21,268 nt of DNA from positions 1 through 21,268 of the forward strand of contig JBHIEG010000026.1 in assembly GCA_046760505.1 (NCBI GenBank), given 5' to 3'. Within the stretch, counting starts at the first letter, position 1, and every line of letters begins with the position of its first letter. Of the stretch, positions 1-17,343 are shown piece by piece. A program made the translations under genes and the position numbers. The notes below the pieces were generated by a model that had not been told where the DNA came from, ran no database searches, and saw only the letters and a list, made by a program, of their open reading frames with translations. The DNA comes from Candidatus Hydrothermarchaeota archaeon. Its GTDB lineage: Archaea; CAYFZR01.

Positions 1-117
1 TTTTAAGGTCTCAGGATTGATTTGAAAGGATCTTGTGGAATCTTTCCAGAGGATGTAAAATTTTTACCACAAAAAATATAGCGAGTTATTAAAGATCTAA
101 ATTGAAGGTGATATGAG

Positions 118-333
118 TTGGGGGAAAAGGAAGAGATTGAAAGAAGAAGTAGGCTCATTCAATCTAAACTGAGGGATATACTGAGACTATGTGATCTAGA
201 GAAATTAGATTTATTGGAGAGAGAACTAGAGGATATCCGTCAGAATCTCATACTATTCTGGGATTTTAGCGAGGTGGAGAAAGCCAAAGTGAAAAGATGC
301 CTTTGCTACAATCCCAGGAAGTGCCCGGCATAG
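118..333 (+). CDS. Small hypothetical protein (helical N-terminus, Cys-rich C-terminus)
   Basis: 71-aa ORF with TTG start preceded by an AGGTGAT RBS-like motif at ~106-112; same strand as, and 37 nt upstream of, the GH57 gene. Confidence 0.5.
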   Translation: MGEKEEIERRSRLIQSKLRDILRLCDLEKLDLLERELEDIRQNLILFWDFSEVEKAKVKRCLCYNPRKCPA

Positions 334-370
334 AGTACCGATAAAAAATTCAACAAGGAATTCGGCAAAA

Positions 371-1852
371 ATGCCAGATATATGTCTTTGTTTCGAAGTT
401 CATCAGCCCTACAGGCTAAATAAAGATTTTTACTGGAATAAAACTAGACTTAAAAAGGATATAGATCTTTTCAACCTCTACTTTGATGAGGTAACGGATA
501 AAAAAATACTGGATAGAGTGGCAAACAAATGCTACTTTCCGACCAATAACCTAATTTTGAAAGCCATAGATTTTTTTAAATCTGAGAAAGGCAGGATCAG
601 GATTGCATTGAGTTTGTCAGGAGTTTTCATAGAGCAGTGCGAAAAATACAATCCAGATCTGCTGGATTCGTTTCAGAAATTAGCAGACACAAAATGCGTT
701 GAATTTTTAAATCAAACTTACTACCATTCTTTAGCAAGTTTATACGAAGATAAGGATGAATTCATAGAACAGGTTGAAATGCATAGGTCTTTAATTAAAG
801 ATTTGTTCAAAATCGAGCCGGTGGTTTTTGAAAATACGGAGTTGATCTACAACAACAGAATAGCCAAGATAGCCGAAGAATTGGGTTTTAAGGGAATATA
901 TACGGAGGGAATAGAGAGAATATTAAATGGACGCTCTCCAAATTATATTTACAGGGCTTTTAACTCCGAGATAAAAGTTTTACTGAGAAATTATAGACTT
1001 ACAGATGATTTCGGATTTAGATTCTCAGCCAAATGGTGGGAGGAGTATCCACTTACTGCCGAAAAATACGCCACCTGGCTTGAGTCTACCCCCGGACAAA
1101 TAATAAATTTGTTCGCTGACTACGAAACTTTCGGCGAGCATCACTGGCCTGAGACCGGAATTCACGATTTTCTATGGCATTTGTTCCTTGAGGTTAACAA
1201 AAGACCTTCCCTTACTTTTATTACGCCGGGAGAAGCAATCGAAAAACATCAGGCAGCGGGAGAGATAGACGTTTACGAAAAAATAGATACGGTATCTTGG
1301 GCGGATTTAGAAAGGGATACAAGTTGCTGGCTTGGCAATCAAATGCAGCACGCATGTTATAAAGGGATAAAGGACCTTGGCAATCTGATTAAAGAAACTG
1401 AAAATGAGGAGTTTAAAAGAATATGGAGGCTCCTTCAAACTAGCGATCATTTTTACTATATGTTTACGGCTGGTGGAGCACCAGGAGAGGTGCACAGTTA
1501 CTTCAGTCATTTTAACACGCCCATGGATGCTTTTTTGACTTACTTCAGCATTTTATGCGATTTTGAAAATAGAGTCAAAGAGGGTATAAAAATCGTAGAT
1601 CCATTCTACTTCTTTATCAGAGATGGAGAATTTACAGGAAAGGTCGCTTTCAGTTTAAAGGGCTTTAAAAAAATTATAGAAAAAATAGACATTTCGAGCA
1701 TTGAGTACCATATGAAAAGGGGAGACATAGAGAACTGGATGAGTCATTCCATAAAAAATCAAGAATTGGCAAATAAAATCGCCAACCTAAAGGAAATGGA
1801 AGGTGAAAGGCTGAGAAAGGCTTTGATTAATCTAATAAGCCAAATTATCTAG
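371..1852 (+). CDS. Glycoside hydrolase family 57 (alpha-amylase/amylopullulanase-like) with a C-terminal DUF5752-like domain
   Basis: GH57 motifs FEVHQP, QTYYHSL, FENTELIYN (nucleophile Glu), DYETFGEH (acid/base Asp), SWAD and LQTSDHFYYM; C-terminal PFYF...SIEYHMKRGDIENW domain. Confidence 0.92.
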   Translation: MPDICLCFEVHQPYRLNKDFYWNKTRLKKDIDLFNLYFDEVTDKKILDRVANKCYFPTNNLILKAIDFFKSEKGRIRIALSLSGVFIEQCEKYNPDLLDSFQKLADTKCVEFLNQTYYHSLASLYEDKDEFIEQVEMHRSLIKDLFKIEPVVFENTELIYNNRIAKIAEELGFKGIYTEGIERILNGRSPNYIYRAFNSEIKVLLRNYRLTDDFGFRFSAKWWEEYPLTAEKYATWLESTPGQIINLFADYETFGEHHWPETGIHDFLWHLFLEVNKRPSLTFITPGEAIEKHQAAGEIDVYEKIDTVSWADLERDTSCWLGNQMQHACYKGIKDLGNLIKETENEEFKRIWRLLQTSDHFYYMFTAGGAPGEVHSYFSHFNTPMDAFLTYFSILCDFENRVKEGIKIVDPFYFFIRDGEFTGKVAFSLKGFKKIIEKIDISSIEYHMKRGDIENWMSHSIKNQELANKIANLKEMEGERLRKALINLISQII

Positions 1853-2827: not shown

Positions 2828-2941
2828 GAAATCCCCTCGAAGGAGTTCCTTTGATCGTTTAGATATATTTTTTTTATGGCATCAATTGCCGCAAACGATA
2901 GTGGAATATAGTATTTTTTGGTTAGGAAGTTGGGGAGTGAG

Positions 2942-3265
2942 ATGAAACTACTGCTAATATCGACGAAGGATCCAATCTCTCATGAACACCCGGAACTTGT
3001 ACTCGAAATAGCAAAAATAGCGAAAGAAAAAGGAGCCCATGTAAAGATATTCTTAATAGAGGACGGAGTCCTCCTTAGAAAGGGACAGGAAATAGAGGAA
3101 AAAGTGAAAGAAACAGCGGAAGCAGGAATCAGCATAAAGGCAGAGGACATTTCTTTGAAGACAAGAGGTGTTTCTGAGGACAAACTCGTGGATAATATAG
3201 AGGTATCGAATCTTGATGAACTCTTCGACTCCATAATTGAGTTCGATAGGGTGGTATGGTTTTAA
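2942..3265 (+). CDS. DsrE/F/H-superfamily protein (DsrH-like, Cys-less)
   Basis: IFLIEDGV, ISLKTRGV and LDELFDSIIEFDRVVWF; ATG at 2942 follows a GGGGAG/GAGTGA RBS. Confidence 0.8.
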   Translation: MKLLLISTKDPISHEHPELVLEIAKIAKEKGAHVKIFLIEDGVLLRKGQEIEEKVKETAEAGISIKAEDISLKTRGVSEDKLVDNIEVSNLDELFDSIIEFDRVVWF

Positions 3266-3277
3266 GAGGTGAAATAA

Positions 3278-3643
3278 ATGAGAAAAGAAATTACTTTCTT
3301 CATGGTAAGAGGACCATATGATGATGAATCAGTGTACACAGCACTAAGACTGGCTCAAAAAGCAAGAGAAAAAAAAGTCAACGTAAACTTCTTCTTCTAT
3401 CTTACAAGTACCGTGGTTGGAAATAGAGGACAAAAACCAGCGGAATACCCGCCAATTGAAGAGTTGGTAAGGGACATACTTAAGAAAGGTCTGAAGAACC
3501 CTAAAGCAGATGCAATCGCATGTATAAAATGTACAGACGCGAGAGGAGTTACGAATAGCCAGACGGAGGGCATCATAATAGGCGGTCTGTACGATCTAAT
3601 GGAGTGGATAAGGGATACAGACAAAACCATAATGCTGTCTTGA
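3278..3643 (+). CDS. DsrE-family sulfurtransferase/peroxiredoxin-like protein with CxxC
   Basis: RGPYDDE..YTALRLA, ACIKCTDARG and GGLYDLMEWI..TDK; GAGGTGA RBS. Confidence 0.85.
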   Translation: MRKEITFFMVRGPYDDESVYTALRLAQKAREKKVNVNFFFYLTSTVVGNRGQKPAEYPPIEELVRDILKKGLKNPKADAIACIKCTDARGVTNSQTEGIIIGGLYDLMEWIRDTDKTIMLS

Positions 3644-3644
3644 G

Positions 3645-4031
3645 GTGATTGAGGTGGGAAAGAAGGTACTCACAATAATAACGAGGGCACCTTACGGAAG
3701 TGAAGACAATTTCGGAGCCTTAGACATGATCTCCACCGCTCCAGCCGCCGATTTGGAAGCAGAGGTAATATTCCTGGGAGGAGGAGTTCATAGCACGGTG
3801 AAGGGGCAGGAACCGGGATACGGTCCCCTTGCAATATGGAGAAAGGGAATACCAAGTGTCGAAGATAGAATTAATAATGCGAAGGAATTTGGAGTAAAAA
3901 TATCCGTGCTGGATAGAGATCTGAAAAGAAGGGGGATAGGAGAAGAAGAACTCATATCGGGCATTGATATAATCTCTTTGGAAGAGGTGACGGATAAGAT
4001 ATTAGAGAGTGATGCCACATTTGTATTTTAG
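3645..4031 (+). CDS. DsrF/TusC-family protein
   Basis: TRAPYGSE, IFLGGGVHS.VKGQ, DLKRRGI and ESDATFVF; no Cys. Confidence 0.82.
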   Translation: MIEVGKKVLTIITRAPYGSEDNFGALDMISTAPAADLEAEVIFLGGGVHSTVKGQEPGYGPLAIWRKGIPSVEDRINNAKEFGVKISVLDRDLKRRGIGEEELISGIDIISLEEVTDKILESDATFVF

Positions 4032-4039
4032 GTGATAGG

Positions 4040-4276
4040 ATGAAAGAAATAAAGCCAAGCCATACACTGGATGTGAAGGGAAAGATATGTCCCTATCCCC
4101 TCTTCCATACAAAAAAGACGGTAGAAATACTCAATAAAGGAGAAATATTGGAAGTAATAGCAACCGACCCAGTGGCTCCTGATAACATTTCTTCATGGGC
4201 AGAAGACCACGGACATGAAATACTTGAGGTTAGAAAGGAAGGAGATGTGTTCAAAATATACCTGAGGAAGGGTTAA
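4040..4276 (+). CDS. tusA: TusA/SirA-family sulfur carrier
   Basis: LDVKGKICPYP (CPxP), GEILEVIATDP and W...GH motifs; 78 aa; AGGTGA RBS. Confidence 0.92.
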   Translation: MKEIKPSHTLDVKGKICPYPLFHTKKTVEILNKGEILEVIATDPVAPDNISSWAEDHGHEILEVRKEGDVFKIYLRKG

Positions 4277-4277
4277 C

Positions 4278-4625
4278 TTGAGGGAGATAATTGCCAGGGG
4301 GGAGATGTGTGTTGGATGTAGAGCATGCGAAATCGCATGCTCTTATTACCAGCAAAAAACCTTCAATCCGTCTATTTCTTGTTTAATAATCTGGAGAGGT
4401 AATGAAAAGGAAGGAGAAACAGGAATAATGCTTAAAAAACCAGGAACATTCGTTTTGGCATATGAAACAGGCGACGTTGAGGTAATAAGGGAAGATGAAG
4501 CAAGTGGAGAGATGGCTGACAAGCCAATTCTAAGCAGAAAAGACTGCGATTCATGTGTTAAACTTGAAAACGCCCTTTGCACTATTTTTTGCTTGAGAAA
4601 TGCCTTAATCCAGAGAGAGGTATAG
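4278..4625 (+). CDS. 4Fe-4S dicluster ferredoxin-like protein (AOR-partner type)
   Basis: CVGCRACEIAC followed by FNPSIS, and a second cluster motif CDSC-x7-CTIFC; lies directly upstream of the AOR-like gene. Confidence 0.82.
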   Translation: MREIIARGEMCVGCRACEIACSYYQQKTFNPSISCLIIWRGNEKEGETGIMLKKPGTFVLAYETGDVEVIREDEASGEMADKPILSRKDCDSCVKLENALCTIFCLRNALIQREV

Positions 4626-4627
4626 TT

Positions 4628-5806
4628 TTGACCTACAATAGATTAATTCTTCTGATAGATCTTTTTAAAAAGGAGTATGAAGAAATAGACCTTGAAGATG
4701 ATATTATAGAGGAGAAAATTGGCGGAATAGGAATAAATGAATACATTATGGAGAAATCAAACAGAAATTCGGTGATAATAGGGACCGGTCCGCTGACAGG
4801 ATCTCTGACATTGGGATCCTGCATAGGTGTTTTATCCGGATTTTCGCCGGTAACTGCCAAATTGGAGCACGTGGTTATAGATTGGCATTTCTCTCCTGAG
4901 TTAAAGTTCGCGGGTTATGATTTCCTAGTAATAAAGAACAAATCTTTAGAGCCAGTTTTTCTGTGGATACACGACGAGATCGCTGACATAATGAATGCGC
5001 ACGATTATTGGGGACTTGATGCCAGAACAACCACTGAAAAAATAAGAACGGATCTGGGTTATGAGAACGTTCAGGTTTTAAACATAGGGATTCCCGGAGA
5101 GTATAGAAAGAACATATCTTCTTTTGGTCTAAATTACACTCTTCTGAGAGATCCTTATGCATTATCTGCAGTTTTCGGGGAGAAAAATCTAAAAGCAGTA
5201 GCTGTCGCAGGTCTGGGGGATTTGTATCCTCATGATCCGGAAGAATTTATTAAGCTCTCTGAAAAAGTTATAGATAGATTAAGAAACAATAAATCAGCCA
5301 TAGAATTGATGGAAAACGGAAACATAAGCCTTTTAGATGGAGCACATGTATTGGAGGGAAAGAATGCCAGAAAAAGAGGCTGTTTCTCATGTCCTGTTGC
5401 ATGTCGCTTTCATATCTTGAGCGAGGAAATCTGTTTGTGGGGTTTAGATTCAACAGACGTATACGCAATGAGAAAACTTGATTTTGAGATCGAAACGATT
5501 CTCAAAATAATCGACAGGTGTCATGCTCTTGGATTAAACGTGGAGGGCACCTTGGATATCCTAAAGAAATATGGTGTTGAAGAAAAGGATGCTCTAGATT
5601 TCGTTGAAGAGATCGCCAGAGACAGGAAAAAGTATGTATCCGAAGTTAAAAGTAGTTTTATCGTTCAAAAATTAGAAAAATTCGAAAGTTACAGACTGGG
5701 TTTATTAACAGGCGTATGCCCGTTACTGATCCATTCGGGAGTATATGACAAAGAAATCTTACAGAGTTTGATAAGAACAGCGATAGGCATTGAGACACAT
5801 TTATAA
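4628..5806 (+). CDS. Aldehyde:ferredoxin oxidoreductase-like protein, shortened (AFOR N-terminal domain plus reduced C-terminal domain)
   Basis: IGGIG, GTGPLTGS, SPVT, ELKFAGYD, IGIPGE, GEKNLKAVAV, GCFSCPVAC and distal GVCP. The likely start is TTG 4628 after a GAGAGG RBS (the ORF track starts at 4577). Confidence 0.85.
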   Translation: MTYNRLILLIDLFKKEYEEIDLEDDIIEEKIGGIGINEYIMEKSNRNSVIIGTGPLTGSLTLGSCIGVLSGFSPVTAKLEHVVIDWHFSPELKFAGYDFLVIKNKSLEPVFLWIHDEIADIMNAHDYWGLDARTTTEKIRTDLGYENVQVLNIGIPGEYRKNISSFGLNYTLLRDPYALSAVFGEKNLKAVAVAGLGDLYPHDPEEFIKLSEKVIDRLRNNKSAIELMENGNISLLDGAHVLEGKNARKRGCFSCPVACRFHILSEEICLWGLDSTDVYAMRKLDFEIETILKIIDRCHALGLNVEGTLDILKKYGVEEKDALDFVEEIARDRKKYVSEVKSSFIVQKLEKFESYRLGLLTGVCPLLIHSGVYDKEILQSLIRTAIGIETHL

Positions 5807-5850
5807 ACCATCTGTAAAAATTTTACAAAATCTGGAATATAACCGGATTC

Positions 5851-6585
5851 TCATCTTTTTCTAAACTTATACAGGTCTAATTCCGCTGAAACAATTTCTT
5901 CCTTGTTTTCTTTTTCTGCCTCGCGAACGATACCCCATGGAGATACTATCGCACTTTTGCTGCCTATAATTTTTCCCCTCGAAGATAACCCGAGACAGGC
6001 ATTTTTTAAAATAAACAATGAATTTTCCCTTGCCATTTTTACAGAAGCAGGATGCCCGGTTACCGGAGGATGATCTTCAGATGGCAAAGAGATCGGGAGG
6101 AATATTACATCAGCACCCATGACCGCTAATTTTTTTACCGTCTCTGGGTAGAGTATATCAGCACATATTAGAATGCCTATTCTAGCATGCCCAGAATCGT
6201 AAACAAAAAAGTCCTTACCCGCTTCGAGCCCTTTTTCTCTCTCTTTATCAGTTATATGTATTTTTTTGTATTTTCCTAGTATTTCGCCATTTTTAAATAA
6301 GAATGCTGTGTTATAATATTTGTCTTTCTCTTTTTCGATTACTGTTCCACCAACGATATAGATACCGAGCTTTTCTGATATCTCTTCGAGTAGTGAGATG
6401 GTGGGATAAAAGGTTCTCTCGTATATTTCCTCTATAGGCTCCTCTAAGGATGTTACTGAAAAATACTCTGGCAAGCAAATGAAATCGGGCTTGAATTCAT
6501 TGAAAGACTTCAGTATCAATCTTTCTGCCTTTTTCAAGTTTGATTCAAAATCTCTGATTTCCATTTGGATTAAACTTACTCGCAT
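5851..6585 (-). CDS. Carbon-nitrogen hydrolase (nitrilase/amidase superfamily)
   Basis: Glu-Lys-Cys triad motifs LPEY, YKKIH and ICADILYPE; also YNTA and SAIVSPWG. Likely start MRVSLIQ at 6585. Confidence 0.9.
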   Translation of the reverse strand: MRVSLIQMEIRDFESNLKKAERLILKSFNEFKPDFICLPEYFSVTSLEEPIEEIYERTFYPTISLLEEISEKLGIYIVGGTVIEKEKDKYYNTAFLFKNGEILGKYKKIHITDKEREKGLEAGKDFFVYDSGHARIGILICADILYPETVKKLAVMGADVIFLPISLPSEDHPPVTGHPASVKMARENSLFILKNACLGLSSRGKIIGSKSAIVSPWGIVREAEKENKEEIVSAELDLYKFRKR

Positions 6586-6607
6586 GCTATTTTCATGCTT
6601 ATTATGC

Positions 6608-7021
6608 TTATTCAATGGATCTGGAGAGTTCTGACAGAGGATGACCCTTGCACTTCAGTTCAAATTTTTTGTACCATCCAAATGGGGCTCTCGTTACTCG
6701 ATAGTTTTTTTCCTCCAGTCTTTTATGCACCTCATTTAACAATTCAACCGCTATCTTAGGAGAGGCTAGATTGGAAGAAAGATGGGCAAATGGATATAAA
6801 ACGATATCTTTCGCTTTTACCTTCTCTGCCACATCAATTATATTTTCCAAGGTTTTTTCAAGCGTTTTTCCATCCTCGTCAATTTTCTCTACTGCGGTGA
6901 AACAGACCAAGCAATCATGCACGGTTGTCTTTTCCTTTTTGATATCCTCCACTACAGGTATTTTGACCTTTTTAGTGGGCTCAAAACTGATGTAATCAGA
7001 GTGAATGAAAAGTATTTTCAT
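6608..7021 (-). CDS. Free-standing archaeal threonyl-tRNA synthetase editing domain (DTD-like Ser-tRNA(Thr) deacylase)
   Basis: MKILFIHSDY, LYPFAHLSSNLASP, RAPFGWYK and CKGHPLSELSRSI match the archaeal ThrRS N-terminal editing domain; 137 aa with no catalytic domain. Confidence 0.9.
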   Translation of the reverse strand: MKILFIHSDYISFEPTKKVKIPVVEDIKKEKTTVHDCLVCFTAVEKIDEDGKTLEKTLENIIDVAEKVKAKDIVLYPFAHLSSNLASPKIAVELLNEVHKRLEEKNYRVTRAPFGWYKKFELKCKGHPLSELSRSIE

Positions 7022-7029
7022 AGTCTCTC

Positions 7030-7401
7030 CTAGTTTGCTTTTATTTCTCTTGAAAGAACGGATAAAGGATGTCCTTTAGATCTCAAGGCTAAATTTCGAC
7101 ACATAAGACTTCCTGAAGTGACGTTATATCCTTTTTTCTCCAATGAATCCTGAAGTTTCTCCAGAAAACACGCGGCCTCGTCTACGAAGCATGACTCACA
7201 ATTTTTGAAGGGAGAGGAAGGGTATAACACAATATTTTTTGTTTTAACCTTCGATGCGACGTCCTCTATTTCTTTCACGGCTCCCTCTACTGATTTTAAC
7301 TCGTGTTCTAGGTCGCATTCTGTAATCATTACGGTTAATGCATTTGTTACTCTCTTATTTTCGATCTCTGTGAAGTCCGTGTGAACGAATAAAAATCTCA
7401 T
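7030..7401 (-). CDS. Divergent paralog of the archaeal ThrRS editing domain
   Basis: MRFLFVHTDF, EIEDVASKVKTKNIVLYP and SKGHPLSVLSREI align with the neighbouring gene, but the FAHLSS and APFGWYK motifs are replaced. Confidence 0.8.
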   Translation of the reverse strand: MRFLFVHTDFTEIENKRVTNALTVMITECDLEHELKSVEGAVKEIEDVASKVKTKNIVLYPSSPFKNCESCFVDEAACFLEKLQDSLEKKGYNVTSGSLMCRNLALRSKGHPLSVLSREIKAN

Positions 7402-7524
7402 TCAATCGCCCATCAAATTCACCTGCTAATTACCTTTATCCTTTTCGCCCTCTTATTACCGCTATGCATATTATAAGCGAAAAATATTAATAATAGTGAT
7501 TTTTAAGTTAAGCGAGGTGTTTCA

Positions 7525-8796
7525 ATGCATGTCATAGGATTAAGGTGCAGAGAGTGTGGAAAAGAGTATCCCCATGAACTACTGAATACATGTAATAAAT
7601 GTTTCGGTCCGCTTGAACCTGTCTACAATTTCGATTACATTCAAGAAAACATAAGTAAAAAAAATATCGAGAAGGGTCCCAGCAGTATTTGGAGGTACAG
7701 GATCCTTTTGCCTGTGGAAAGAGAAGAGGTTATAGATTTAGGCGGTGGTTATACTCCCCTGCATAAATGCAAAAATCTTGCCAAAGAATTGGGCTTGAAG
7801 GAACTTTATATAAAAGACGATACTGCAAACCCTACTAACTCTTTTAAGGATAGAGTAGTTCCAGTAGCAGTAACAAAGGCTTTAGAATTTAATATGGAAG
7901 CAGTAGGTTGTGCTTCCACGGGTAATTTAGCAGCAAGTCTTGCGGCTCATGCTGCTAAGGCAAATTTAGATGCATTCATATTCATTCCCTCCGGTTTAGA
8001 ACTAGGGAAAATAGTCCAGATGCTGATATTCGAGCCGAATGTAATAGCAGTGAGAGGCACATACGACGATGCAAATAGGCTCGCCACAGAAATCGCTGAT
8101 ATATATAACTGGGCCTTTGTTAACATAAACGTCAGACCTTATTATGTGGAAGGCTCAAAGACAAGCGCCTACGAAATCGTCGAGCAACTAGACTGGACCA
8201 CGCCTGATAGAATAATCATACCAATGGCCAGCGGAGCGTTGTTCTGCTCAATTGCCAGAGGCTTGAAAGAACTGGAAAAACTCGGTTTAATAGAGGAAAA
8301 CCATACAATGCTTACCGGAACCCAGCCTAAAGGGTGCAGCCCTATTGTGGATGCTTGGTTGGAGAAGAGGGATTACATAATACCAGTTGAAAAGCCGAAC
8401 ACAATAGCAAAGAGCCTAGCGATCGGAGATCCTGCTGATGGATACTATGCCCTAGAGACCATAAAAGAAACCAGAGGAAATGCATATGCCCCCACAGATA
8501 AAGAGCTGGTAGAAGCTATAAAACTGCTAGCAAGAACAGAGGGTATTTTTGCCGAACCAGGATCTGCAACTACAATAGCAGCCCTGAAAGCATTGCTAGA
8601 AAGTGGTGGCATAGAAAGAGATGAGAGAATCGTCTGTTATATAACCGGAAGCGGTCTGAAGACCACTGACTCTGTGGTAAACGAAACTATAAAACCCTAT
8701 GAAATAGATCCAACGGTAGAGTCCTTTAAGGAATATTTGGAAAAGGGGTGGTACCATGGCAAGGGTAAGGATAAGATTCTCTTCCGTGTTACATGA
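7525..8796 (+). CDS. thrC: Threonine synthase-family PLP enzyme (possibly a sulfur-carrier-dependent O-phosphohomoserine sulfhydrylase)
   Basis: N-terminal Zn ribbon CREC...[13 protein letters not shown] (PLP Lys), [21 protein letters not shown] and ITGSGLK. Confidence 0.85.
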
Positions 8797-9037
8797 TTTA
8801 ACGAGGGAAAGAGAAACAGAGTTAGAGGGCGTAAGCACGGTAAAGTCCCTGTTCAACACACTGGTGGAGAAGTACGGTAAGGAATTTAGTGAGAGAGTTT
8901 TAGACGATACAGGAAGACCAAGAAGATTCGTGAACGTCTATGTGAATGGCAAGGATATCAGGCATCTAAAATATATAGACACCGAACTGAACGATGGAGA
9001 TGAGGTCTCCATACTTCCCGCTGTGAGCGGTGGATGA
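8756..9037 (+). CDS. MoaD/ThiS/SAMP ubiquitin-like sulfur carrier
   Basis: Beta-grasp motifs [12 protein letters not shown] and [16 protein letters not shown] with a free C-terminal GG; AGGGGTG RBS. Confidence 0.93.
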
Positions 9038-9070
9038 ACCCTATTTCACAGTCTGTTCCATACATCAAGG

Positions 9071-9835
9071 CTATATATCAAAGAGATTGGAAGCATTCTC
9101 GTAGCAGGCTCTTTGAATATCCTTTTTTGGAATACCCATTTTCCTCATTTCTATCACAGATCTTGGTATTGCAAGAGGATCCGAAGGTATAGAGGATATA
9201 TCGCTATTCAAGATAAATTTAGATGATCCATATTCTTTTATAATCTCTGCCGCTTGTTTGTGGGTGAGTTTTGAGGGTGGTTGTATGGTCAGTCCTATGT
9301 ACACATCGGTATCCATGAGTCTCTCCACAAGATCTTTTGAAGCGTGATCTATCATTATTTTAGTTTGCTCTATTCCCTTTACCTCTACTATCTTTAAGAT
9401 TCTTTCCGCAATTTCAGTCTTGTTTTTCTTTGGTGTATGGGCTATTACCGGCATGTCCTTTTCAACAGCAAGGTCTACTTGTTTTTCCAAGATCTTTTCC
9501 TCTACATCACTTGCATTTTCTAAACCTACTTCCCCTATGGCAACCACGTATCTCTCATTCAATAACTTCGAAAGTTTTTCAAGTAATTCATTCCAGCCTT
9601 TTGGTATTCCACTCGGGTGAATGCCAAGGGCAACATATAGCTCGAGATCATTATCCCTTGCTCTTTTTGTCTCAATCCTCAATAGCCTATCATAGTGGTC
9701 TAAATAAACATCAGCGCTACTCATTCTATAAACGTCGTGAGCGCATGTTATCGCCTTCACTATTCCCGAAATAGCCATCTTTTCAAAATCCTCATAACTT
9801 CTTGTATCAGCGTGAATGTGTGCATCGATGTACAT
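9071..9835 (-). CDS. TatD-family metal-dependent hydrolase (COG1099-like)
   Basis: DAHIH, LGIHP, AIGEVGL, IAHTP, MIDH and LNSD...SDPLA. Confidence 0.88.
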   Translation of the reverse strand: MYIDAHIHADTRSYEDFEKMAISGIVKAITCAHDVYRMSSADVYLDHYDRLLRIETKRARDNDLELYVALGIHPSGIPKGWNELLEKLSKLLNERYVVAIGEVGLENASDVEEKILEKQVDLAVEKDMPVIAHTPKKNKTEIAERILKIVEVKGIEQTKIMIDHASKDLVERLMDTDVYIGLTIQPPSKLTHKQAAEIIKEYGSSKFILNSDISSIPSDPLAIPRSVIEMRKMGIPKKDIQRACYENASNLFDI

Positions 9836-9865
9836 GAATCCGCCCCTTTCGATTTTAAGCAGATT

Positions 9866-11212
9866 TTAAGCATTTACCCTTTCGGCTATATTGATCACAG
9901 TATTGACCATCTCTCCTATCGAATGGGAAAATATCATTATTAACTTTTCCTTGCCCACCTCACCCAGATCGCAGACGACATTTGGCAGTTTCTCAGATTT
10001 GCTAACAGCATATTCAATACCCCATTCCGTTGTCTTGCCTTCTATCCTTTTTATTTCCTCAGGCTCATATTTCCTGTCAAAAAAAGATACGCTCAGACCC
10101 ATTTTTTCGCATACCTCAACGATACGCTCCGAGTATTTTATGTTCATTGCTGCCTTTACGTCTGTATATTTCCTCATCGCGAGTAAAGCCTTTGCCATAT
10201 GTCTAGAAACATCGAACCACGGACAGTAAACCGCTTTTACTCCGTTTTTGATTTTTACAATTCTACCTTCAATTCCCGCTATTTCTCTCTCGTTCATCGC
10301 ATAGGGCAGTGCATAAACCAAATTTGATCCAACCTCAGGTATTAAGTCCATTACTCTATCGTTTGTCTCAAGAAGTTTGATTCCCTCTCTTAACTCTTTC
10401 AGGACTTCATATCTTTTGGATTCATTCATTAGATATGCAAGATGATAAACAGGTCCATTTCCCTTTCCTAGGGGTAGAGAATATTTTAATGATCTCGTAA
10501 CAAATTCTTTCCCCTCTCTTACAGCATTTAATATATCCTCTCCCTTTGCCAGATAGGCTGTTATGGCAGCGGAAAGGGTGCAACCTGTGCCGTGGGTATT
10601 CTCCGTAATGATTCTTTTTTCCCTAAACTCATGGATCTCCCCGTCCTTGTAGAGAATATCTGATGAATACTCCCCGGACAGGTGTCCTCCCTTTATCAGT
10701 ACATTCTCAACCCCCAAATCCGATATCTCTCTTGCTGCCTCTATGCATTCGGAAACAGACGAGATCTTCATCTCTGCTAGAACCTCTGCCTCCTCTACAT
10801 TTGGAGTTAAAAGATAGGCTCTGGGTATCAGTTCCTCTTTCATGATACTTATCGCACTCTCTTTTATCAGAGGTGTCCCGGACTTTGCAACCATTACTGG
10901 GTCTACAATCAACCTTTCCATCGAGTACTCATCCATTTTTTTAGCAACAATCTTTATGTTTTCTTCGTTGCTTAACATGCCGGTCTTTGCTGCGTCAACT
11001 CCTATATCTGAAAAAACTGCATCTATCTGTGCGCTAACTGTATCTGGCTCTATATCTTGTATTTTAAGGACTCCTGTTGTATTTTGAGCAGTTACAGAGG
11101 TTATCACGCTCATCGCGTAAACTCCAAGGCTTTCCATCGTTTTTATGTCTGCTTGGATTCCTGCTCCACCTCCACTGTCAGAGCCTGCTATGGTTAAGCC
11201 CCTTGGAATCAT
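9866..11212 (-). CDS. thiDN: Bifunctional HMP/HMP-P kinase and archaeal thiamine-phosphate synthase (ThiDN)
   Basis: ThiD motifs TIAGSDSGGGAGIQAD, DPVM, TPN..EA, KGGH and THGTGCTLS; ThiN motifs LIPEVGSN, GRI, SRHMA, AAMNIKY and GKE. Confidence 0.95.
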   Translation of the reverse strand: MIPRGLTIAGSDSGGGAGIQADIKTMESLGVYAMSVITSVTAQNTTGVLKIQDIEPDTVSAQIDAVFSDIGVDAAKTGMLSNEENIKIVAKKMDEYSMERLIVDPVMVAKSGTPLIKESAISIMKEELIPRAYLLTPNVEEAEVLAEMKISSVSECIEAAREISDLGVENVLIKGGHLSGEYSSDILYKDGEIHEFREKRIITENTHGTGCTLSAAITAYLAKGEDILNAVREGKEFVTRSLKYSLPLGKGNGPVYHLAYLMNESKRYEVLKELREGIKLLETNDRVMDLIPEVGSNLVYALPYAMNEREIAGIEGRIVKIKNGVKAVYCPWFDVSRHMAKALLAMRKYTDVKAAMNIKYSERIVEVCEKMGLSVSFFDRKYEPEEIKRIEGKTTEWGIEYAVSKSEKLPNVVCDLGEVGKEKLIMIFSHSIGEMVNTVINIAERVNA

Positions 11213-11454
11213 TCTTTACCTCCTAATTTTTTATAATTCTGTAATTCGTATTTGTTTATATCATATTTGATGAAATAATTTTTGATTAAATCGATATTCG
11301 AAGTACTACCTGACAATTTTTTCAAATCAGGAGGTTCTTGCCTTTATGCCATCTCAGCACGAGAATCATCTTTCAGGTCTTGTTTTTAGGTGTCTCTTAA
11401 ATATCTGCGAAAAGTTGATATTAGTTTAGAAAATAAAGTTAGTGCGGTGTAGTC

Positions 11455-12432
11455 ATGCCAGTAAGTAAGGCGCCATATAAGAGAGGTTACAAGCATACGA
11501 AGTCAAGGGGTAGCGATCCAGCCGTATGGTGCGAGATGTGCGGGAGAAGGGTTCCCAGATTCAAGTCCTTCTCCAAGATCCAGAGCTTTTACATAGCTGA
11601 TCCTGTGGTAAGGGGAGTGGTAGATCAACATTCCTTCAACGTTAGAAAGGTATATTACTGTCCTAAATGCGCCAAATTCCTTGGAATAGTTGAAAAGAAA
11701 AGACAAAGGATGGAACAACCTAAAAGGATACCTGAAGTATCCGGTAACGTGATTATAAGAAAGATACACGGTCCAGAAGTGATGTTTAAGCATAAAGATT
11801 ATGCCTTCATCATAGATGTTGAAAATAAGAAGGAAAGAATAAAAAATTTGATAATCAGGCCCAAGACAATAGTTCAAAACATCAACCTCGAGCCAAAAGA
11901 GGTAAGGTTTGACGTTCCGGAAAAAACCATAAAACAAATACATTTTAGAGCGAGAGTTGATGATGAAGTAACAATAAAGGGAACCGCAATTTCGTTCGAG
12001 ATTCTTAAAGATGGGAGGCCTCTAGAAAATAAGGTTCATTACGTCAGCATAATGGACGAAAGTGCCCTGAACAAAGAAATAAAACTGGAGATAGAAAAGA
12101 GGTTAGAAAGGACAAAGATTACCGCCAACGAAATGTTAAAGGTTGAATTAGTGGTCAAAAACACCGGAGATTATCCTGCATACTTCGAAATAAAGGATAA
12201 AGTACCGAAGGGATGGTTAACAAGAGGAGACACAAGAGTACACAGTTATCTACAACCCAAGGAAGAATTGGTTCACGTATATCAGATGAAACCCTTTAAA
12301 GCAGGAAAATACAGGATACCAAGATGCGAGATGATGTACGAAGACGATCTCGAGGTTAAAAGGGTTCTCAGCAATGAGGTAACAGTAGAAGTATTGCCTG
12401 CAAAAAAAGCATCAAAGGTGCCCCTAGAATAA
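11455..12432 (+). CDS. Ribosomal protein eS26 (S26e)-like zinc ribbon fused to two predicted Ig-like beta-sandwich domains
   Basis: Basic N-terminus, then CEMCGRRVPRFK and YYCPKCAKFLGIV (eS26-like); C-terminal V.L.VKNTG...IKDKVP.G...LQPKE...GKY.IP.....Y....SN.V.VEV pattern (DUF11/BatD/TRAP-beta-like). Confidence 0.7.
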   Translation: MPVSKAPYKRGYKHTKSRGSDPAVWCEMCGRRVPRFKSFSKIQSFYIADPVVRGVVDQHSFNVRKVYYCPKCAKFLGIVEKKRQRMEQPKRIPEVSGNVIIRKIHGPEVMFKHKDYAFIIDVENKKERIKNLIIRPKTIVQNINLEPKEVRFDVPEKTIKQIHFRARVDDEVTIKGTAISFEILKDGRPLENKVHYVSIMDESALNKEIKLEIEKRLERTKITANEMLKVELVVKNTGDYPAYFEIKDKVPKGWLTRGDTRVHSYLQPKEELVHVYQMKPFKAGKYRIPRCEMMYEDDLEVKRVLSNEVTVEVLPAKKASKVPLE

Positions 12433-12446
12433 ATGAGCAAGCAAAA

Positions 12447-13478
12447 TCATATGTCCCAGTAAGGAGATATCTTCCCCCTGATCCTATTGATTATTTCTGA
12501 GACCCTTTCCGTGATTTTCTGCTCTGGAGGTGGATTTGGTTCTTCAATGGATAATTCCAGGTCCCCTAATTCATTCAGAATGCTTAAAACACCGTAAGAA
12601 ATTCCATCTGGGTGATATCCTCCCTCGAGTAACATGGTAACTCTATTTTTGCATTTCTCAGAAATTTCTCTGATTAAAGAGGCAAATTTAACGAAAGTAT
12701 TTATACTGTACCCTAGGTCTGATATGGGATCTAGGAAATAACCATCAAACCCAGAGGAGACAAGGATGAACTCGGGCTTGAAACTCTCTGTTACTGGGAG
12801 CAGAATCTGGTTCATGATTGCCAGTGCCCCGGCACCAGAGGTCTTTGGAGGAACAGGAGCATTTATGTTAAAGCCCTCTCCCTCTCCCTTTCCTACATCA
12901 TCTATTGAACCCGTCCCCGGATAGAGAGGATGTTGATGGATCGAAAAGTAGAGCACCCCAGGATCCGAGTAAAATATATTTTCAGTACCATTCCCGTGAT
13001 GAGCATCAAAATCTATTATCAAAATTCTCTCTAAAAATCCCTTTAGATAATTAGCGCATACAGCAATGTTATTGAAATAACAAAATCCCCCTCCAAAGTC
13101 TTTACCTGCGTGATGTCCTGGAGGTCTGATCAGAGCAAATGAAAGTGAATGGTTTTCCATTGTTTCTTTAACCGCTTCTATTGCTCCGCTGACAGAAAGC
13201 AGGGCAATATCGTAGGTATTTTTATATACTGGGGTGTCCAGTGTAAGCATTCCACCCCTACTGCTCAGATCTTTCACAAGTTTGACGTAGGTGCTTTCAT
13301 GAGTTTTTTCAACCAAGTGGGAATTCAGTGATTTGGGCTCAATTTTATTAACTTTCTGAAAAATCTCATAAACCTCAAGGAGATCAATGACCGATTGAAG
13401 TCTTTTTGGGTTTTCTGGGTGTCTTGATCCGGGATCGTGCTCCAAGTATTTGGGATGATAGATGATTGATATTCTCAT
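12447..13478 (-). CDS. Zn-dependent histone deacetylase-family protein (HDAC/AcuC/APAH)
   Basis: HPENPKRL, RPPGHHA, GFCYFNN, DFDAHHGNGT, YPGTG, GFDG and LEGGY. Confidence 0.93.
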   Translation of the reverse strand: MRISIIYHPKYLEHDPGSRHPENPKRLQSVIDLLEVYEIFQKVNKIEPKSLNSHLVEKTHESTYVKLVKDLSSRGGMLTLDTPVYKNTYDIALLSVSGAIEAVKETMENHSLSFALIRPPGHHAGKDFGGGFCYFNNIAVCANYLKGFLERILIIDFDAHHGNGTENIFYSDPGVLYFSIHQHPLYPGTGSIDDVGKGEGEGFNINAPVPPKTSGAGALAIMNQILLPVTESFKPEFILVSSGFDGYFLDPISDLGYSINTFVKFASLIREISEKCKNRVTMLLEGGYHPDGISYGVLSILNELGDLELSIEEPNPPPEQKITERVSEIINRIRGKISPYWDI

Positions 13479-13515
13479 GCTTTCATCTGATTTCTTTTTA
13501 TATAAAATTTTATCA

Positions 13516-13531
13516 CGAAAAGCATAAATAA
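13516..13531 (+). promoter_or_regulatory. Putative BRE/TATA promoter of tRNA-Gly
   Basis: CGAAAAGCATAAATAA: purine-rich BRE-like run plus a TATA-like box about 26-35 nt upstream of the mature tRNA. Confidence 0.4.
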
Positions 13532-13556
13532 GCTCTTCATTTAAATGTTATATTGA

Positions 13557-13631
13557 GCGGTCGTAGTATAGGTTGGTCTAGTACATCGGCCTGCCACGCC
13601 GAGAACCCGGGTTCAAATCCCGGCGGCCGCA
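13557..13631 (+). tRNA. tRNA-Gly (GCC)
   Basis: Acceptor stem GCGGTCG/CGGCCGC with discriminator A, anticodon arm TCGGC-CTGCCAC-GCCGA and T arm CCGGG-TTCAAAT-CCCGG; no intron, no encoded CCA. Confidence 0.96.
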
Positions 13632-13648
13632 CTTAAGACCTATTTAAA

Positions 13649-13659
13649 CTTATTTTTTT
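13649..13659 (+). terminator. Oligo-T archaeal terminator after tRNA-Gly
   Basis: TTATTTTTTT run about 18 nt downstream of the tRNA 3' end. Confidence 0.45.
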
Positions 13660-13870
13660 AAATAATCCTAATCGCATCTACTATTCTATCAAAAAATATC
13701 TATCAAAAATATTATTCAGAGGTACATTCTGATACATTCTGGAGAAGTCTGACTCGTGTCAGAAAAAATCAGTTATAGCAATTCTTTAACAATTTTGAAT
13801 CGTATTACAAGCGTCTGACAAAATCGAAAGATTTTTAGACTTTGTTTTATAAAAATGAAGTGGGTACGCT

Positions 13871-14626
13871 ATGAATCTGCCAATTTTGCTGCTGCTCGTC
13901 TTTTTAATTGTTCCCATAAGGGGAGATGTAATCCTTGAGTCTACAGTCATTCCGGACCCCATACCCAAGGATGGCTCAGGGGTTCTAATCGTGGATGTTA
14001 GCGTTGTCAAGGACGATGACCCCCTTACAAAGGATACAGCCTACGATTTTTATTTAGAGATTTCATCAGATGCTTTCAAGGGGGAAAATTATATCAAAAC
14101 CAGACCCATAAATCTCCCTGTTAATACGAGCAAGAGCTACCAATTCGATATCAATCCAATTTCATCTGGAAAAGTAGACATCAAGGCTAAATACGGGATA
14201 ATCGTCTGTACAGATGATTACTGTCCCATAGAGCCGAACAAATTTGAGACAAAGACGCTATCAGTTTCATTTGAAGTATCAGATGAATACGCGCCATTAG
14301 GCTACACCGACATAGTAAAAGCAAAGGATATGCTTAAGAAGAATTATGAGAAGAGTTTTGAGGACATAAAAGATCTGAACACAACCATAGTTTCTTTAAG
14401 AGAAAAGTCATCACGCTTAAAAGATGCTTACCTTTCCACGCTATCGAGATATAATTTAAAGAAAGAAAAATTCGAGTATTTTGTAAAAGAAATGGATAGA
14501 GTCAAGAAAGAGAAGATCCTGATCGATTTTTTCTTATTTTTCTCCATTACATCGATCATGGTTAACGATTACATCAAATTAAGGAGAGGAAAAAAATGGC
14601 GAATAGTAAGATGGTCCTACCGATAG
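13871..14626 (+). CDS. Exported membrane-anchored protein: signal peptide, Ig-like domain with C-x4-C, coiled coil, C-terminal TM helix
   Basis: Hydrophobic N-terminus LPILLLLVFLIVP, beta-rich domain containing VCTDDYCP, helical K/E-rich stalk, TM segment ILIDFFLFFSITSIMV and basic tail. Confidence 0.7.
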   Translation: MNLPILLLLVFLIVPIRGDVILESTVIPDPIPKDGSGVLIVDVSVVKDDDPLTKDTAYDFYLEISSDAFKGENYIKTRPINLPVNTSKSYQFDINPISSGKVDIKAKYGIIVCTDDYCPIEPNKFETKTLSVSFEVSDEYAPLGYTDIVKAKDMLKKNYEKSFEDIKDLNTTIVSLREKSSRLKDAYLSTLSRYNLKKEKFEYFVKEMDRVKKEKILIDFFLFFSITSIMVNDYIKLRRGKKWRIVRWSYR

Positions 14627-15846
14627 TACTGCTCTTGCTCTCAACCCCTGTATGTTCCAAGGTTATTCTGGAGTACTTCTGGAATTCTGAATGCGCTGCC
14701 TGTAAACTTCTTGCCAAAGAGATGTTCTTTGAAAAACTGGAGGAGAAATATGGATCAAATCTGATCGTGAAGAAATACAATACGGACAATTCAGAGAACA
14801 GAGATTACTTCAAGACGAAATATAATGGAGAAATTCTTCCGCATGTCGTCATAAACGAAAGAATAAACCTGATAGGGTATGCTGAAATAACAAAAAATAC
14901 TGAACGCATAATTCAAGAAGAAATAAGGAATGGAGGAGTCTCAACAGTTGCGTTTACCAGCAGTATGTTAATCAAGCCTAAAATAAATCCGATCTTAACT
15001 CCTGTGGTTCAAAAAACAAAGGAGGAGACTTCAACCCAAAAAAGACCCCTCACTAGGTATGAACGAATCTCATTGCTTTTGGAAGATATAGAGAAAAAAA
15101 TTGGAAACCTGGAACTCATGGGTATCGACGTTACCGAAGAAAAAGAAAGCCTGAACAAACTTCAATTCAAACTTAGGGGTTTGGATGGGAAGGAAAATGA
15201 AGATGACTACGAGCCAAGGTTAAATGAAGTGCGCATAATGGGAGAGAAGTTGGATGAAAAGATTACAGAGAATGAAAAGAACCTAGCATATGATATGTTG
15301 TCTAAGGCAAGGGACGATTTAATTCCACCAAGAGAAATCTTTTTCATATCTCCAACTGGAAGAGAACTTCTAACCAAGGCCAACGAATATATAGAAAGGG
15401 CAAACTATCAGTACAGGGTGGCCGAAACCGCATATTATTCAAAAGACTACTTAAAGGCATATACATGGGCAGCAACTAGCCTCAACAGTATTAAAAATGC
15501 CAAAGAACTTATATCCAAAGCTGAAATAATGGAAGAGGCATATATTCGGGAAAATATTCAAGAAGATAGTAGAACCGTTAATAAGTATGCTGAAGGTCTA
15601 AGATATAACGACGAAAAGATAAACAAATTACGGAACGAGATATCTACCCTTAAGAGTGAAATCAAATTTTATGAAGACGGTATCGCCACTCATTCGAGGG
15701 GGATAGAAGAGCTGAATTCTGAGATGAAAGAACTCAGCAAAAATATAAACTCAAAGAGAGAGAGAAACTGGAGTTACAAGTTAGGCTTGCTGATTTACAT
15801 AACAATGCTTCTACTCTCAGCGCCTATAAAGGAGAGTGGGCTATGA
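14596..15846 (+). CDS. Exported thioredoxin/glutaredoxin-fold protein with long helical stalk and C-terminal TM helix
   Basis: Signal peptide VLPIVLLLLS, EYFWNSECAAC (CxxC), cis-Pro motif ILPHVVIN, LIG, heptad-rich region and TM segment LGLLIYITMLLL; GAGAGG RBS. Confidence 0.78.
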   Translation: MANSKMVLPIVLLLLSTPVCSKVILEYFWNSECAACKLLAKEMFFEKLEEKYGSNLIVKKYNTDNSENRDYFKTKYNGEILPHVVINERINLIGYAEITKNTERIIQEEIRNGGVSTVAFTSSMLIKPKINPILTPVVQKTKEETSTQKRPLTRYERISLLLEDIEKKIGNLELMGIDVTEEKESLNKLQFKLRGLDGKENEDDYEPRLNEVRIMGEKLDEKITENEKNLAYDMLSKARDDLIPPREIFFISPTGRELLTKANEYIERANYQYRVAETAYYSKDYLKAYTWAATSLNSIKNAKELISKAEIMEEAYIRENIQEDSRTVNKYAEGLRYNDEKINKLRNEISTLKSEIKFYEDGIATHSRGIEELNSEMKELSKNINSKRERNWSYKLGLLIYITMLLLSAPIKESGL

Positions 15847-16064
15847 GGCTCCCTTGGGTAGTAATGATACTGGGCATGGTGATATTTACCCTCGGATTAG
15901 TAAAAGATATTGCAGATGAAGACATACTCACAAATTGGGAATTTACAGCAGGCTTGTCAGGATCTTTGAAGATTTTTTCAAAATCTTTACCGGTAGACGG
16001 CATTTTACTTGTATTCGGCGGCGCTTTCTTGGTTTTAATCGGGCATATTCTCATAGATTATTGA
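15843..16064 (+). CDS. Small two-TM membrane protein
   Basis: Two hydrophobic segments; ATGA overlap with the upstream stop codon; GGAG RBS. Confidence 0.7.
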   Translation: MRLPWVVMILGMVIFTLGLVKDIADEDILTNWEFTAGLSGSLKIFSKSLPVDGILLVFGGAFLVLIGHILIDY

Positions 16065-16135
16065 TGATGGAAAGGTTTTTAGTCTTAAATTAATCTTAAA
16101 TTCTATCTGAGCATTAAGGCTGAAAAACAACATAT

Positions 16136-16166
16136 ACACTAGATACAATAACACTAGATACAATAA
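16136..16166. repeat. Perfect 15-nt tandem duplication (ACACTAGATACAATA x2)
   Basis: Copies at 16136-16150 and 16151-16165, ending one base before tRNA-Val. Confidence 0.9.
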
Positions 16167-16240
16167 GGGCCCGTGGTCTAGCAGGTTATGACGCCACGCT
16201 CACACCGTGGAGATCGGGCGTTCGAATCGCCCCGGGCCCA
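16167..16240 (+). tRNA. tRNA-Val (CAC)
   Basis: Acceptor stem GGGCCCG/CGGGCCC with discriminator A, anticodon arm CCACG-CTCACAC-CGTGG and T arm GGGCG-TTCGAAT-CGCCC; no intron, no encoded CCA. Confidence 0.96.
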
Positions 16241-16296
16241 CTCAGTTTTATAAAGATCAATTTTTGCTAGCTTTTCGAGTTTATTTCCCTTCATCC

Positions 16297-17328: not shown

Positions 17329-17343
17329 TTTTTCACCTCTATC

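Follow-up and report, generated by a model that had tools for sequence, protein, structure and literature searches.

The 21,268-nucleotide contig JBHIEG010000026.1 of a Candidatus Hydrothermarchaeota archaeon (assembly GCA_046760505.1; hereafter the window) encodes, directly behind a tusA gene and a ferredoxin gene, a 392-residue protein related to the tungsten-containing aldehyde ferredoxin oxidoreductases (AORs). The protein, here called the short AOR, keeps the AOR fold and the ligands of the [4Fe-4S] cluster, and the residues that hold the tungstopterin cofactor in its relatives are replaced or deleted. We suggest that the protein derives from a two-subunit tungsten oxidoreductase (WOR) of the WorL-WorS or BamB-BamC type and is now the large subunit of a miniaturised, pterin-free version, with the core fold and the iron-sulfur site retained and the tungstopterin pocket gone. 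The large subunit would bind the 115-residue two-cluster ferredoxin encoded upstream, creating a wire of three [4Fe-4S] clusters. The best explanation of the whole, to which we give an even chance of being right, is that this pterin-free electron-transfer heterodimer is the redox module of a TusA/DsrE sulfur relay.

In the short AOR, the Pfam family AFOR_N (PF02730) covers residues 7-195 (E 6.7e-35; 121 bits, cut-off 29.8), and AFOR_C (PF01314) has no match at E <= 0.01. The NCBIfam AOR equivalog model scores 93.7 bits, against a cut-off of 868, and covers residues 42-216 only. An AlphaFold model (AF2) generated from 45 relatives has a predicted local distance difference test score (pLDDT) of 91.7 and a predicted TM-score (pTM) of 0.92. 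Superposing such a model on the Pyrococcus furiosus AOR (WorL, PDB 1aor) was a check proposed in the first-pass annotation of the window, and it returned the same core fold. Foldseek matches the model to 1aor_A with an E-value of 8.3e-26 and TMq of 0.87, and VIA aligns 390 residues along positions 2..523 of that chain with Z 36.1 and a root-mean-square deviation of 2.0 Å. Seven WOR-family chains are found at Z 32-36, while the next chain has Z 3.4. The overall three-domain AOR fold is thus predicted for the short AOR as well, with reduced domains 2 and 3 that in the model still superpose on 1aor. As the superposition is close to full length, the short AOR can be described as an AOR core minus excised pieces, about 210 residues shorter than the P. 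furiosus enzyme. In a family alignment with the canonical AORs of its own genome it has four deletions: a short loop around position 40, some 25-30 residues past domain 1 (the Thr243 region), about 110 residues at the site of Tyr427 and His448 in AORs, and the C-terminal ~70 residues.

The first-pass annotation, made from the sequence alone, had claimed that the Cx2Cx3C motif and a distal cysteine are kept, that the pterin and tungsten motifs are altered and that the protein is free of tungsten, and the alignments bear this out. The cysteines of CFSCPVAC (C252, C255, C259) and GVCP (C364) are aligned with the canonical AOR ligands, and stand at places matching those of the P. furiosus enzyme. 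The cofactor residues, in contrast, are exchanged. From the profile alignment to 1aor and the family table, Arg76 corresponds to Ile66, Asn93 to Val83, Arg182/Ala183 to Leu172/Leu173 and Gly185-Arg186 to Asp175-Pro176. Here, residues 185-196 of 1aor, GRGGVGAVMGSK, pair with residues 175-186 of the short AOR, DPYALSAVFGEK. The position of the DxxGLD motif reads HALGLN in both the pairwise and the MAFFT family alignment, and in the latter the two DxxGL[CD] motifs stand as HALGLN and LLTGVC. The GPEYE motif is aligned to GLDST in a weak second stretch of the HMMER pairwise alignment and to CLWGL in the family alignment. These two alignments are 4 residues apart, so that the Glu313 position is either Thr276 (pairwise) or Gly272 (family alignment), and in neither case is there a glutamate or any other carboxylate. 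Arg76, Arg182 and the aspartates of the DxxGL[CD] motifs, along with the Gly-rich loop 185-190, are presumably the holders of the pyranopterin and its Mg in AOR. The Asn93/Ala183 region is described as important for cofactor binding in PMC12096430, and Thr243, Glu313, Tyr427 and His448 are important AOR residues according to PMC12096430 and PMC13328260. With the tungstopterin pocket lost, aldehyde oxidation in the AOR manner should be impossible for the short AOR.

A short reading frame without its active site could be a gene in decay. Among 40 sampled relatives, an orthologue was found in one genome of the same genus, the sister species with locus L001; the other relatives are related at the domain level only. 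Between these two orthologues, which are 80% identical, the ratio of nonsynonymous to synonymous substitution rates (dN/dS) is 0.113; the N domain alone gives 0.071 and the remainder 0.144. The neighbouring genes have values of 0.03-0.15 against L001, so the short AOR falls inside their range. The dN/dS check proposed in the first-pass annotation therefore gives purifying selection. A canonical AOR at the locus of relatives is not seen either, as the sole syntenic relative is equally short. A decaying pseudogene is ruled out by this dN/dS together with the equal length of the orthologue.

Pterin independence is also evident from the genomes in which such proteins occur. For the pterin INDEPENDENCE test, five Methanomassiliicoccales genomes that carry the ferredoxin-short AOR pair were searched; their completeness is not reported. 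Three of them, G041, G043 and G045 (1.8-2.0 Mb), gave no MoaC, no MoaA C-terminal domain (Mob_synth_C), no MoeA_N and no AFOR_C. In G042 and G044, MoaC, MoeA_N and canonical AORs are present, with the MoaA C-terminal domain in G042 only. Mere gaps in the genomes are unlikely, because synthesis genes and canonical AORs are concordant across them. Since three of five pair-carrying genomes have no detectable MoaA, MoaC, MoeA or canonical AOR, the short-AOR clade functions without pterin, unlike canonical AOR. The own genome of the window holds four canonical AORs and can make the cofactor, and the pterin-free case for the short AOR itself therefore rests on its residues. This availability of the cofactor speaks for a decaying or truncated canonical AOR, or for a protein that still binds a tungsten or molybdenum pterin. 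We consider this very improbable, and largely refuted by the low dN/dS, the short orthologue, the replaced cofactor-binding residues, the deletions, which are common to the whole clade, and the clade members in genomes that lack pterin synthesis.

The short AOR is one member of a large clade of short AORs, which the first-pass annotation missed. A profile-free exhaustive search with the window protein gave 3111 matches at E <= 0.001, and at E <= 1e-30 all 33 database representatives have lengths of 250-502 residues. Species-representative genomes, scanned with a pattern, yielded 73 loci, of which seven have an ORF of canonical length (581-747 residues) and the others are short or broken at contig ends. 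The members of the clade have about 360-500 residues. Both in a FastTree phylogeny of 150 rows and in a quick IQ-TREE phylogeny of 54 rows they are monophyletic with support 100. A sister relation specifically to BamB was considered, and is resolved by neither tree. Signatures of the clade include W113, H115, D116, R248, H81 and D175, the last being Gly in canonical AORs. Similar proteins form 29 clusters in the ESM Atlas, mostly named hypothetical, and NCBIfam has no model for the clade. The search for short homologs with a conserved dsrE/tusA linkage, also proposed in the first-pass annotation, thus found the homologs in large number but not the linkage, as discussed below.

Some members of the clade deviate from the window protein in their cysteines. 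The Methanofastidiosia-type short AORs (L004, L006, L019, L030, L043 and relatives) have lost the Cx2Cx3C motif and keep only the cysteine beside the Arg76 position and the fourth-ligand cysteine, which could form a dithiol site. As this combination of Cys65 and the fourth ligand is found in only 8 of 98 sequences, a dithiol as a trait of the whole clade is ruled out. The cultured Desulfosarcina cetonica JCM 12296 (L044) has a 439-residue short AOR without cluster ligands, and its ferredoxin.

The ferredoxin is the most constant companion of the short AOR. A homologue is encoded directly upstream in 66 of the 73 loci. All 29 aligned partners have the eight cysteines, even those beside short AORs without ligands of their own, while the insert between the two cysteine motifs has no conserved cysteine. 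The model of the window ferredoxin (pLDDT 88.1) is structurally most similar to the BamC chains of 4z3w/4z3x (E 4e-4, TMq 0.60), followed by 8c0z_C and 9mqx_E/G; the small subunits of the A. aromaticum AOR, the bifurcating WOR and WOR5 thus come next. Nearest to BamC/WorS chains and with eight cysteines, the ferredoxin is a reduced protein of the WorS type, left with two of the four clusters.

A complex of the short AOR and the ferredoxin, with three clusters riding along, was predicted in three runs and compared with 3 controls. Each run scored 0.92, against 0.00 for the best control. Solved complexes attain the score mark used in 116 of 157 cases, mismatched pairs in 2 of 215. At least 95% of the contacts are common to the runs, with a partner pLDDT of at least 83. 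In the model, the cysteine loop of the short AOR (residues 248-258) lies against residues 12-16 of the ferredoxin, i.e., its first cluster motif. The model thus supports a heterodimer with cluster-to-cluster geometry. The earlier proposal of an electron-transfer or scaffold subunit agrees with the conserved ferredoxin pairing and with this predicted contact.

The arrangement of the genes joins the pair to the relay. The region 4278-5806 holds two ORFs in different frames, see Table 1. A single frameshifted gene of ~510 codons over this region was considered and ruled out, as the first ORF is a conserved stand-alone ferredoxin. Both ORFs start with TTG, the ferredoxin 1 base after the tusA stop and the short AOR 2 bases past the ferredoxin stop, and the latter ends with a stop codon at 5804-5806. 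A mechanical ORF list places the start of the short AOR at TTG 4577 (409 residues); we prefer TTG 4628, because the N-termini of homologues, an upstream GAGAGGT Shine-Dalgarno-like motif and the database entry P0001 agree on it. The plus-strand operon opens with the weakly TusB/DsrH-like gene, and the gaps from 3265 to 4628 are 12, 1, 8, 1 and 2 bases. Such short gaps (1-12 bases), with stop and start codons in places only 1-2 bases apart, argue that the six genes form one transcript with coupled translation. That the ORF is intact and sits tightly behind tusA and the ferredoxin had been noticed before and holds, with gaps of 1 and 2 bases. A second triplet of TusD/TusC/TusB-like genes (1853-2827) diverges from the operon. 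All NCBIfam TusB, TusC and TusD assignments in the window score under the curated cut-offs. The same nine genes are present at L001, all under purifying selection. Of the nine-gene system claimed in the first-pass annotation, the genes are thus real and kept in the sister species, but they are found nowhere else among the loci examined. No RNA runs carrying the DNA of the window are listed; there are only four DNA runs, from one study labelled hydrothermal vent metagenome.

Table 1. Features of the window around the short AOR gene.
Feature	Position	Strand	Evidence
TusB/DsrH-like, 101 aa	1853..2158	-	Pfam DsrH 1.4e-9; NCBIfam TusB 2.2e-12, just under cut-off
TusC/DsrF-like, 115 aa	2127..2474	-	Pfam DsrE 1.1e-9; NCBIfam TusC 3.2e-15, under cut-off
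TusD/DsrE-like, 114 aa	2483..2827	-	Pfam DsrE 5e-14; NCBIfam TusD 5.6e-10, under cut-off; Cys in TCGQNVKERG
AT-rich divergent intergenic region, 90 bp, between the two dsrE triplets	2828..2917	.	presumed promoters
DsrE-family, weakly TusB/DsrH-like, 115 aa	2918..3265	+	Pfam DsrE 7e-15, DsrH 6.6e-4; NCBIfam TusB 6.6e-5, under cut-off
DsrE-family, TusD/DsrE-like, 121 aa	3278..3643	+	Pfam DsrE 5.1e-14; NCBIfam TusD 4.5e-5, under cut-off; Cys in ACIKCTDARG
DsrE-family, TusC/DsrF-like, 128 aa	3645..4031	+	Pfam DsrE 5.9e-14; NCBIfam TusC 1.9e-8, under curated cut-off
TusA-family sulfur carrier, 78 aa	4040..4276	+	Pfam TusA E 9.8e-23; Cys-Pro-x-Pro motif KICPYP
Ferredoxin-like partner, 115 aa, mini-WorS/BamC-like	4278..4625	+	CxxCxxCxxxC and CxxCx7CxxxC, taken as motifs for two [4Fe-4S] clusters
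Short AOR-fold protein, 392 aa, pterin-free mini-WorL	4628..5806	+	Pfam AFOR_N 7-195; [4Fe-4S] ligands C252, C255, C259, C364

The TusA - DsrEFH/TusBCD - DsrC/TusE relay is known for its function from work on E. coli and Allochromatium. The gene cluster resembles such relays in its two TusD/TusC/TusB-like triplets, in the CPxP cysteine of its TusA, and in the cysteines of both TusD-like proteins (ACIKCTDARG and TCGQNVKERG). It differs from them in that DsrC/TusE (PF04358) has no match in the own genome, rated 100% complete, and in that an iron-sulfur pair of AOR descent stands at the end of the operon. We suggest that in this genus one copy of the pair came to lie behind three dsrE-family genes and tusA, in an operon with translational coupling. 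There it would pass electrons of ferredoxin level to sulfane sulfur on TusA/DsrE, releasing sulfide, or would run in reverse, and could so take the place held elsewhere by DsrC/TusE-linked enzymes. Three points lead us to propose that the pair supplies or removes electrons for the sulfane sulfur of TusA/DsrE: the operon, the lack of DsrC/TusE, and the disulfide-reducing CCG enzymes that commonly accompany the clade.

The neighbours of the short AOR across the clade may point to other partners. They were counted within 6 kb in the 73 loci, many of which are cut by contig ends. CCG/HdrD-like iron-sulfur proteins are found in 37 loci, GlcD-like FAD oxidases in 25 and NarI-like membrane proteins in 20, and in 34 loci a BPL_N-like protein of ~410 residues is encoded directly downstream. 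Loci from Thermodesulfobacteriota contain GntR regulators, an aldehyde dehydrogenase and multihaem cytochromes, and those of the Methanofastidiosia type HdrA, MvhD and a molybdopterin oxidoreductase. The BPL_N-like protein (~370-410 residues, e.g. L020:11077-12189 and L054:11270-12499) has no NCBIfam model and no sequence match in the PDB; the copy at L020 contains a GICAG motif resembling a nucleophile elbow. At L061, L062, L069, L053 and L058, from Actinomycetota and some Thermodesulfobacteriota, an NMT1/SsuA-type ABC transporter (nitrate/sulfonate/bicarbonate family) is encoded after the ferredoxin, short AOR and BPL_N-like genes.

The own genome holds a second, Hdr-linked copy of the pair, also missed in the first-pass annotation. 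On contig 7, a 114-residue ferredoxin is encoded with a 475-residue short AOR that is 39% identical to the one in the window and has kept the ligands. On one side it is flanked by TfrA/TfrB-like genes, and HdrD-like and NarI-like genes lie on the other strand; an HdrA-MvhD fusion, a protein with four CCG domains and a BPL_N-like gene complete the locus. This locus (L081, G000:C7:40001-60000, 3296-17716) adjoins fumarate hydratase and resembles a thiol:fumarate reductase / heterodisulfide cluster. In both trees the second copy groups with copies labelled Theionarchaea and Thermococci. The pair in the window looks like a duplicate of such a pair that moved behind tusA, shrank further and evolves fast.

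From these neighbours it can be speculated that the pair is a pterin-free electron module whose true partners are Hdr-like CCG proteins encoded elsewhere, so that its position behind tusA would reflect co-regulation or chance insertion. The frequencies of CCG, GlcD-like, BPL_N-like and NarI-like neighbours, the plentiful Hdr-like genes beside the second copy and the restriction of the tusA/dsrE operon link to one genus agree with this. However, the tight spacing of the six genes favours one transcript, the sister species has the same arrangement, with purifying selection on all nine genes, and the Hdr-linked job is already filled by the second copy. We therefore consider this alternative unlikely, if credible.

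Several observations weigh against a relay-bound redox module. The operon link of the pair to tusA/dsrE is limited to two species of one genus. TusA occurs in 6 of the 73 loci and DsrE-like matches in 7, and they share an operon with the short AOR in L001 only. In Methanomassiliicoccales a tusA-dsrE operon lies ~3 kb off on the other strand, with pyrBI, a TrmB regulator and a Roadblock gene in between. As these genes separate the two and the relay genes are co-oriented with an ArcS-like gene, a role in tRNA modification rather than with the short AOR is hinted at. A family-wide dsrE/tusA link was thus not found in these loci. In the own genome the relay is not unique, since it has five TusA genes, i.e., four besides that of the operon, and other relay loci. 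The window protein and its L001 orthologue sit on a long stem of 1.1-1.3 near the base of the clade, where the trees leave their exact position unsettled, and the window protein differs from the consensus of the clade signatures at eight other positions. The success of the complex prediction may reflect likeness and not binding, because the BamBC, AorAB and WOR5 complexes are solved. Finally, all four cluster ligands are found in 47 of 98 aligned short-clade sequences (loci and database representatives mixed, duplicates kept). The common function of the clade is therefore independent of this cluster, and the AOR shell has a role besides carrying it.

This last point leads to the alternative of a redox-inert scaffold or pseudoenzyme, in which the AOR shell merely positions the ferredoxin or other partners and the cluster is structural. 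It would explain why 51 of the 98 members are without at least one ligand, yet have ferredoxin partners with all 8 cysteines. On the other hand, the window protein, its orthologue and its paralogue all retain four ligands, and in the model it is this ligand loop that the cluster motif of the ferredoxin touches. A scaffold is hence improbable for the protein in the window.

In Methanomassiliicoccales, the operon at L016:3155-7123 (and in the corresponding stretches of L008, L039 and L045) has the order tusA-dsrE2-dsrH-dsrE-dsrE and is co-oriented with the ArcS-like gene (DUF5591, PUA and TGT domains). At L002 (14216-16171), downstream of a ferredoxin-short AOR-BPL_N cluster, a 652-residue protein has ~120 DsrE-like residues at its start (E 7.9e-8 to the TusC-like protein of the window), fused to radical-SAM and GNAT domains. 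Being the N-terminus of a radical-SAM/GNAT protein, this DsrE match was rejected as a relay gene.

A last alternative, in line with a proposal of the first-pass annotation, is that the short AOR is itself a catalytic sulfur acceptor or reductase. Its cluster would act with a nearby thiol, for instance Cys65, to split a persulfide or disulfide one electron at a time. Analogues of such chemistry with a cluster and a thiol are ferredoxin:thioredoxin reductase and HdrB. Cys65 adjoins the position of Arg76 in the P. furiosus enzyme and is shared by L001 and roughly half of the clade. In the model it belongs to a loop of which residues 58-62 meet the cluster loop 248-258 at the predicted ferredoxin interface. 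The eight Methanofastidiosia-type members with only the Cys65-position and fourth-ligand cysteines, the clade-specific H81, D175 and R248 conserved in the former cofactor loops, and the missing DsrC/TusE are also in line with it. However, Cys65 is missing in 26 of the 47 members with a full ligand set, the AOR fold is not shared by any known family of such chemistry, and no physical link of the short AOR to TusA is seen. We find this reading, built by analogy, rather unlikely.

Class II WORs and BamBC are among the known systems closest to the pair. Class II WORs (P. furiosus WOR5/ASOR 6x1o, A. aromaticum AorAB 8c0z) have the large subunit gene beside that of a small iron-sulfur subunit, as found here, and the modelled contact between cluster loop and cluster motif and the WorS-type chains nearest to the small subunit would fit them too. 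According to PMC13328260, a class II WOR consists of WorL and a WorS with four [4Fe-4S] clusters. In contrast, the partner ferredoxin has eight cysteines, enough for two clusters, and the large subunit is without a pterin site. In class II benzoyl-CoA reductase, whose active-site module is BamBC (4z3w), BamC provides the best matches to the ferredoxin, and BamB is the second-best sequence match of the short AOR (E 9.4e-22). The bamBC genes sit beside bamDEF, and many relatives of the short AOR are similarly encoded beside HdrA-, MvhD- and CCG-type genes. However, BamB has 653 residues and a tungsten cofactor, and the short AOR has no such site.

To our knowledge, tungsten oxidoreductases have been described as always carrying a pyranopterin cofactor. 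Searches of the literature yielded no account of an AOR clade that is short or free of pterin, nor any paper joining aldehyde ferredoxin oxidoreductase, TusA and DsrE. The current WOR classification took proteins with both N- and C-terminal InterPro domains, as stated in PMC13328260, and the portion of its supplements consulted contains no TusA/DsrE terms. PMC2702500 mentions a canonical Aor5 only.

The own genome has other sulfur loci. At L087 (G000:C9:44001-62000, 5760-11323), genes for DrsE_2, TusA, DsrE, a TusA-DsrE fusion and a thioredoxin-DsrH fusion are found. Across a TrmB regulator from them lies a fusion of glutaredoxin, ferredoxin:thioredoxin-reductase-beta and DUF3422, with IscS and NifU genes nearby. 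At L088 (G000:C10:5001-15000, 4036-7537), a ThiF-type E1, TusA, a SepSecS/cysteine-desulfurase-like protein, DUF169 and thioredoxin are encoded in a row, which suggests a further sulfur-activation pathway. In the window itself, the minus strand carries tandem free-standing tRNA-Thr_ED genes, the archaeal threonyl-tRNA synthetase editing domain, at 6608-7021 (E 3.9e-52) and 7030-7401 (E 1e-12), of which the second is far more diverged.

In a wider sense, the short AOR and its mini-WorS may be a widespread and undescribed offshoot of the tungsten oxidoreductases, stripped of the cofactor and used as a low-potential iron-sulfur module in the chemistry of thiols, disulfides and persulfides. In most lineages its electrons would go to Hdr-like CCG enzymes. 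In this deep-branching vent archaeon, the fast-evolving copy in the window would have turned into a ferredoxin-dependent reductase, or loader, of TusA/DsrE-bound sulfur that replaces the missing DsrC/TusE branch. We put this forward tentatively, as a possibility well short of even. A large cofactor-less clade, under selection and with its own ferredoxin, shows a second use of the AOR shell, one that needs no cofactor. Desulfosarcina cetonica JCM 12296, as one cultured carrier of the clade, is a possible host for experiments on it. With Hdr-like company and a TusA/DsrEFH-type relay without DsrC/TusE, the pair is a testable candidate for the coupling of ferredoxin to sulfur trafficking in strictly anaerobic archaea.

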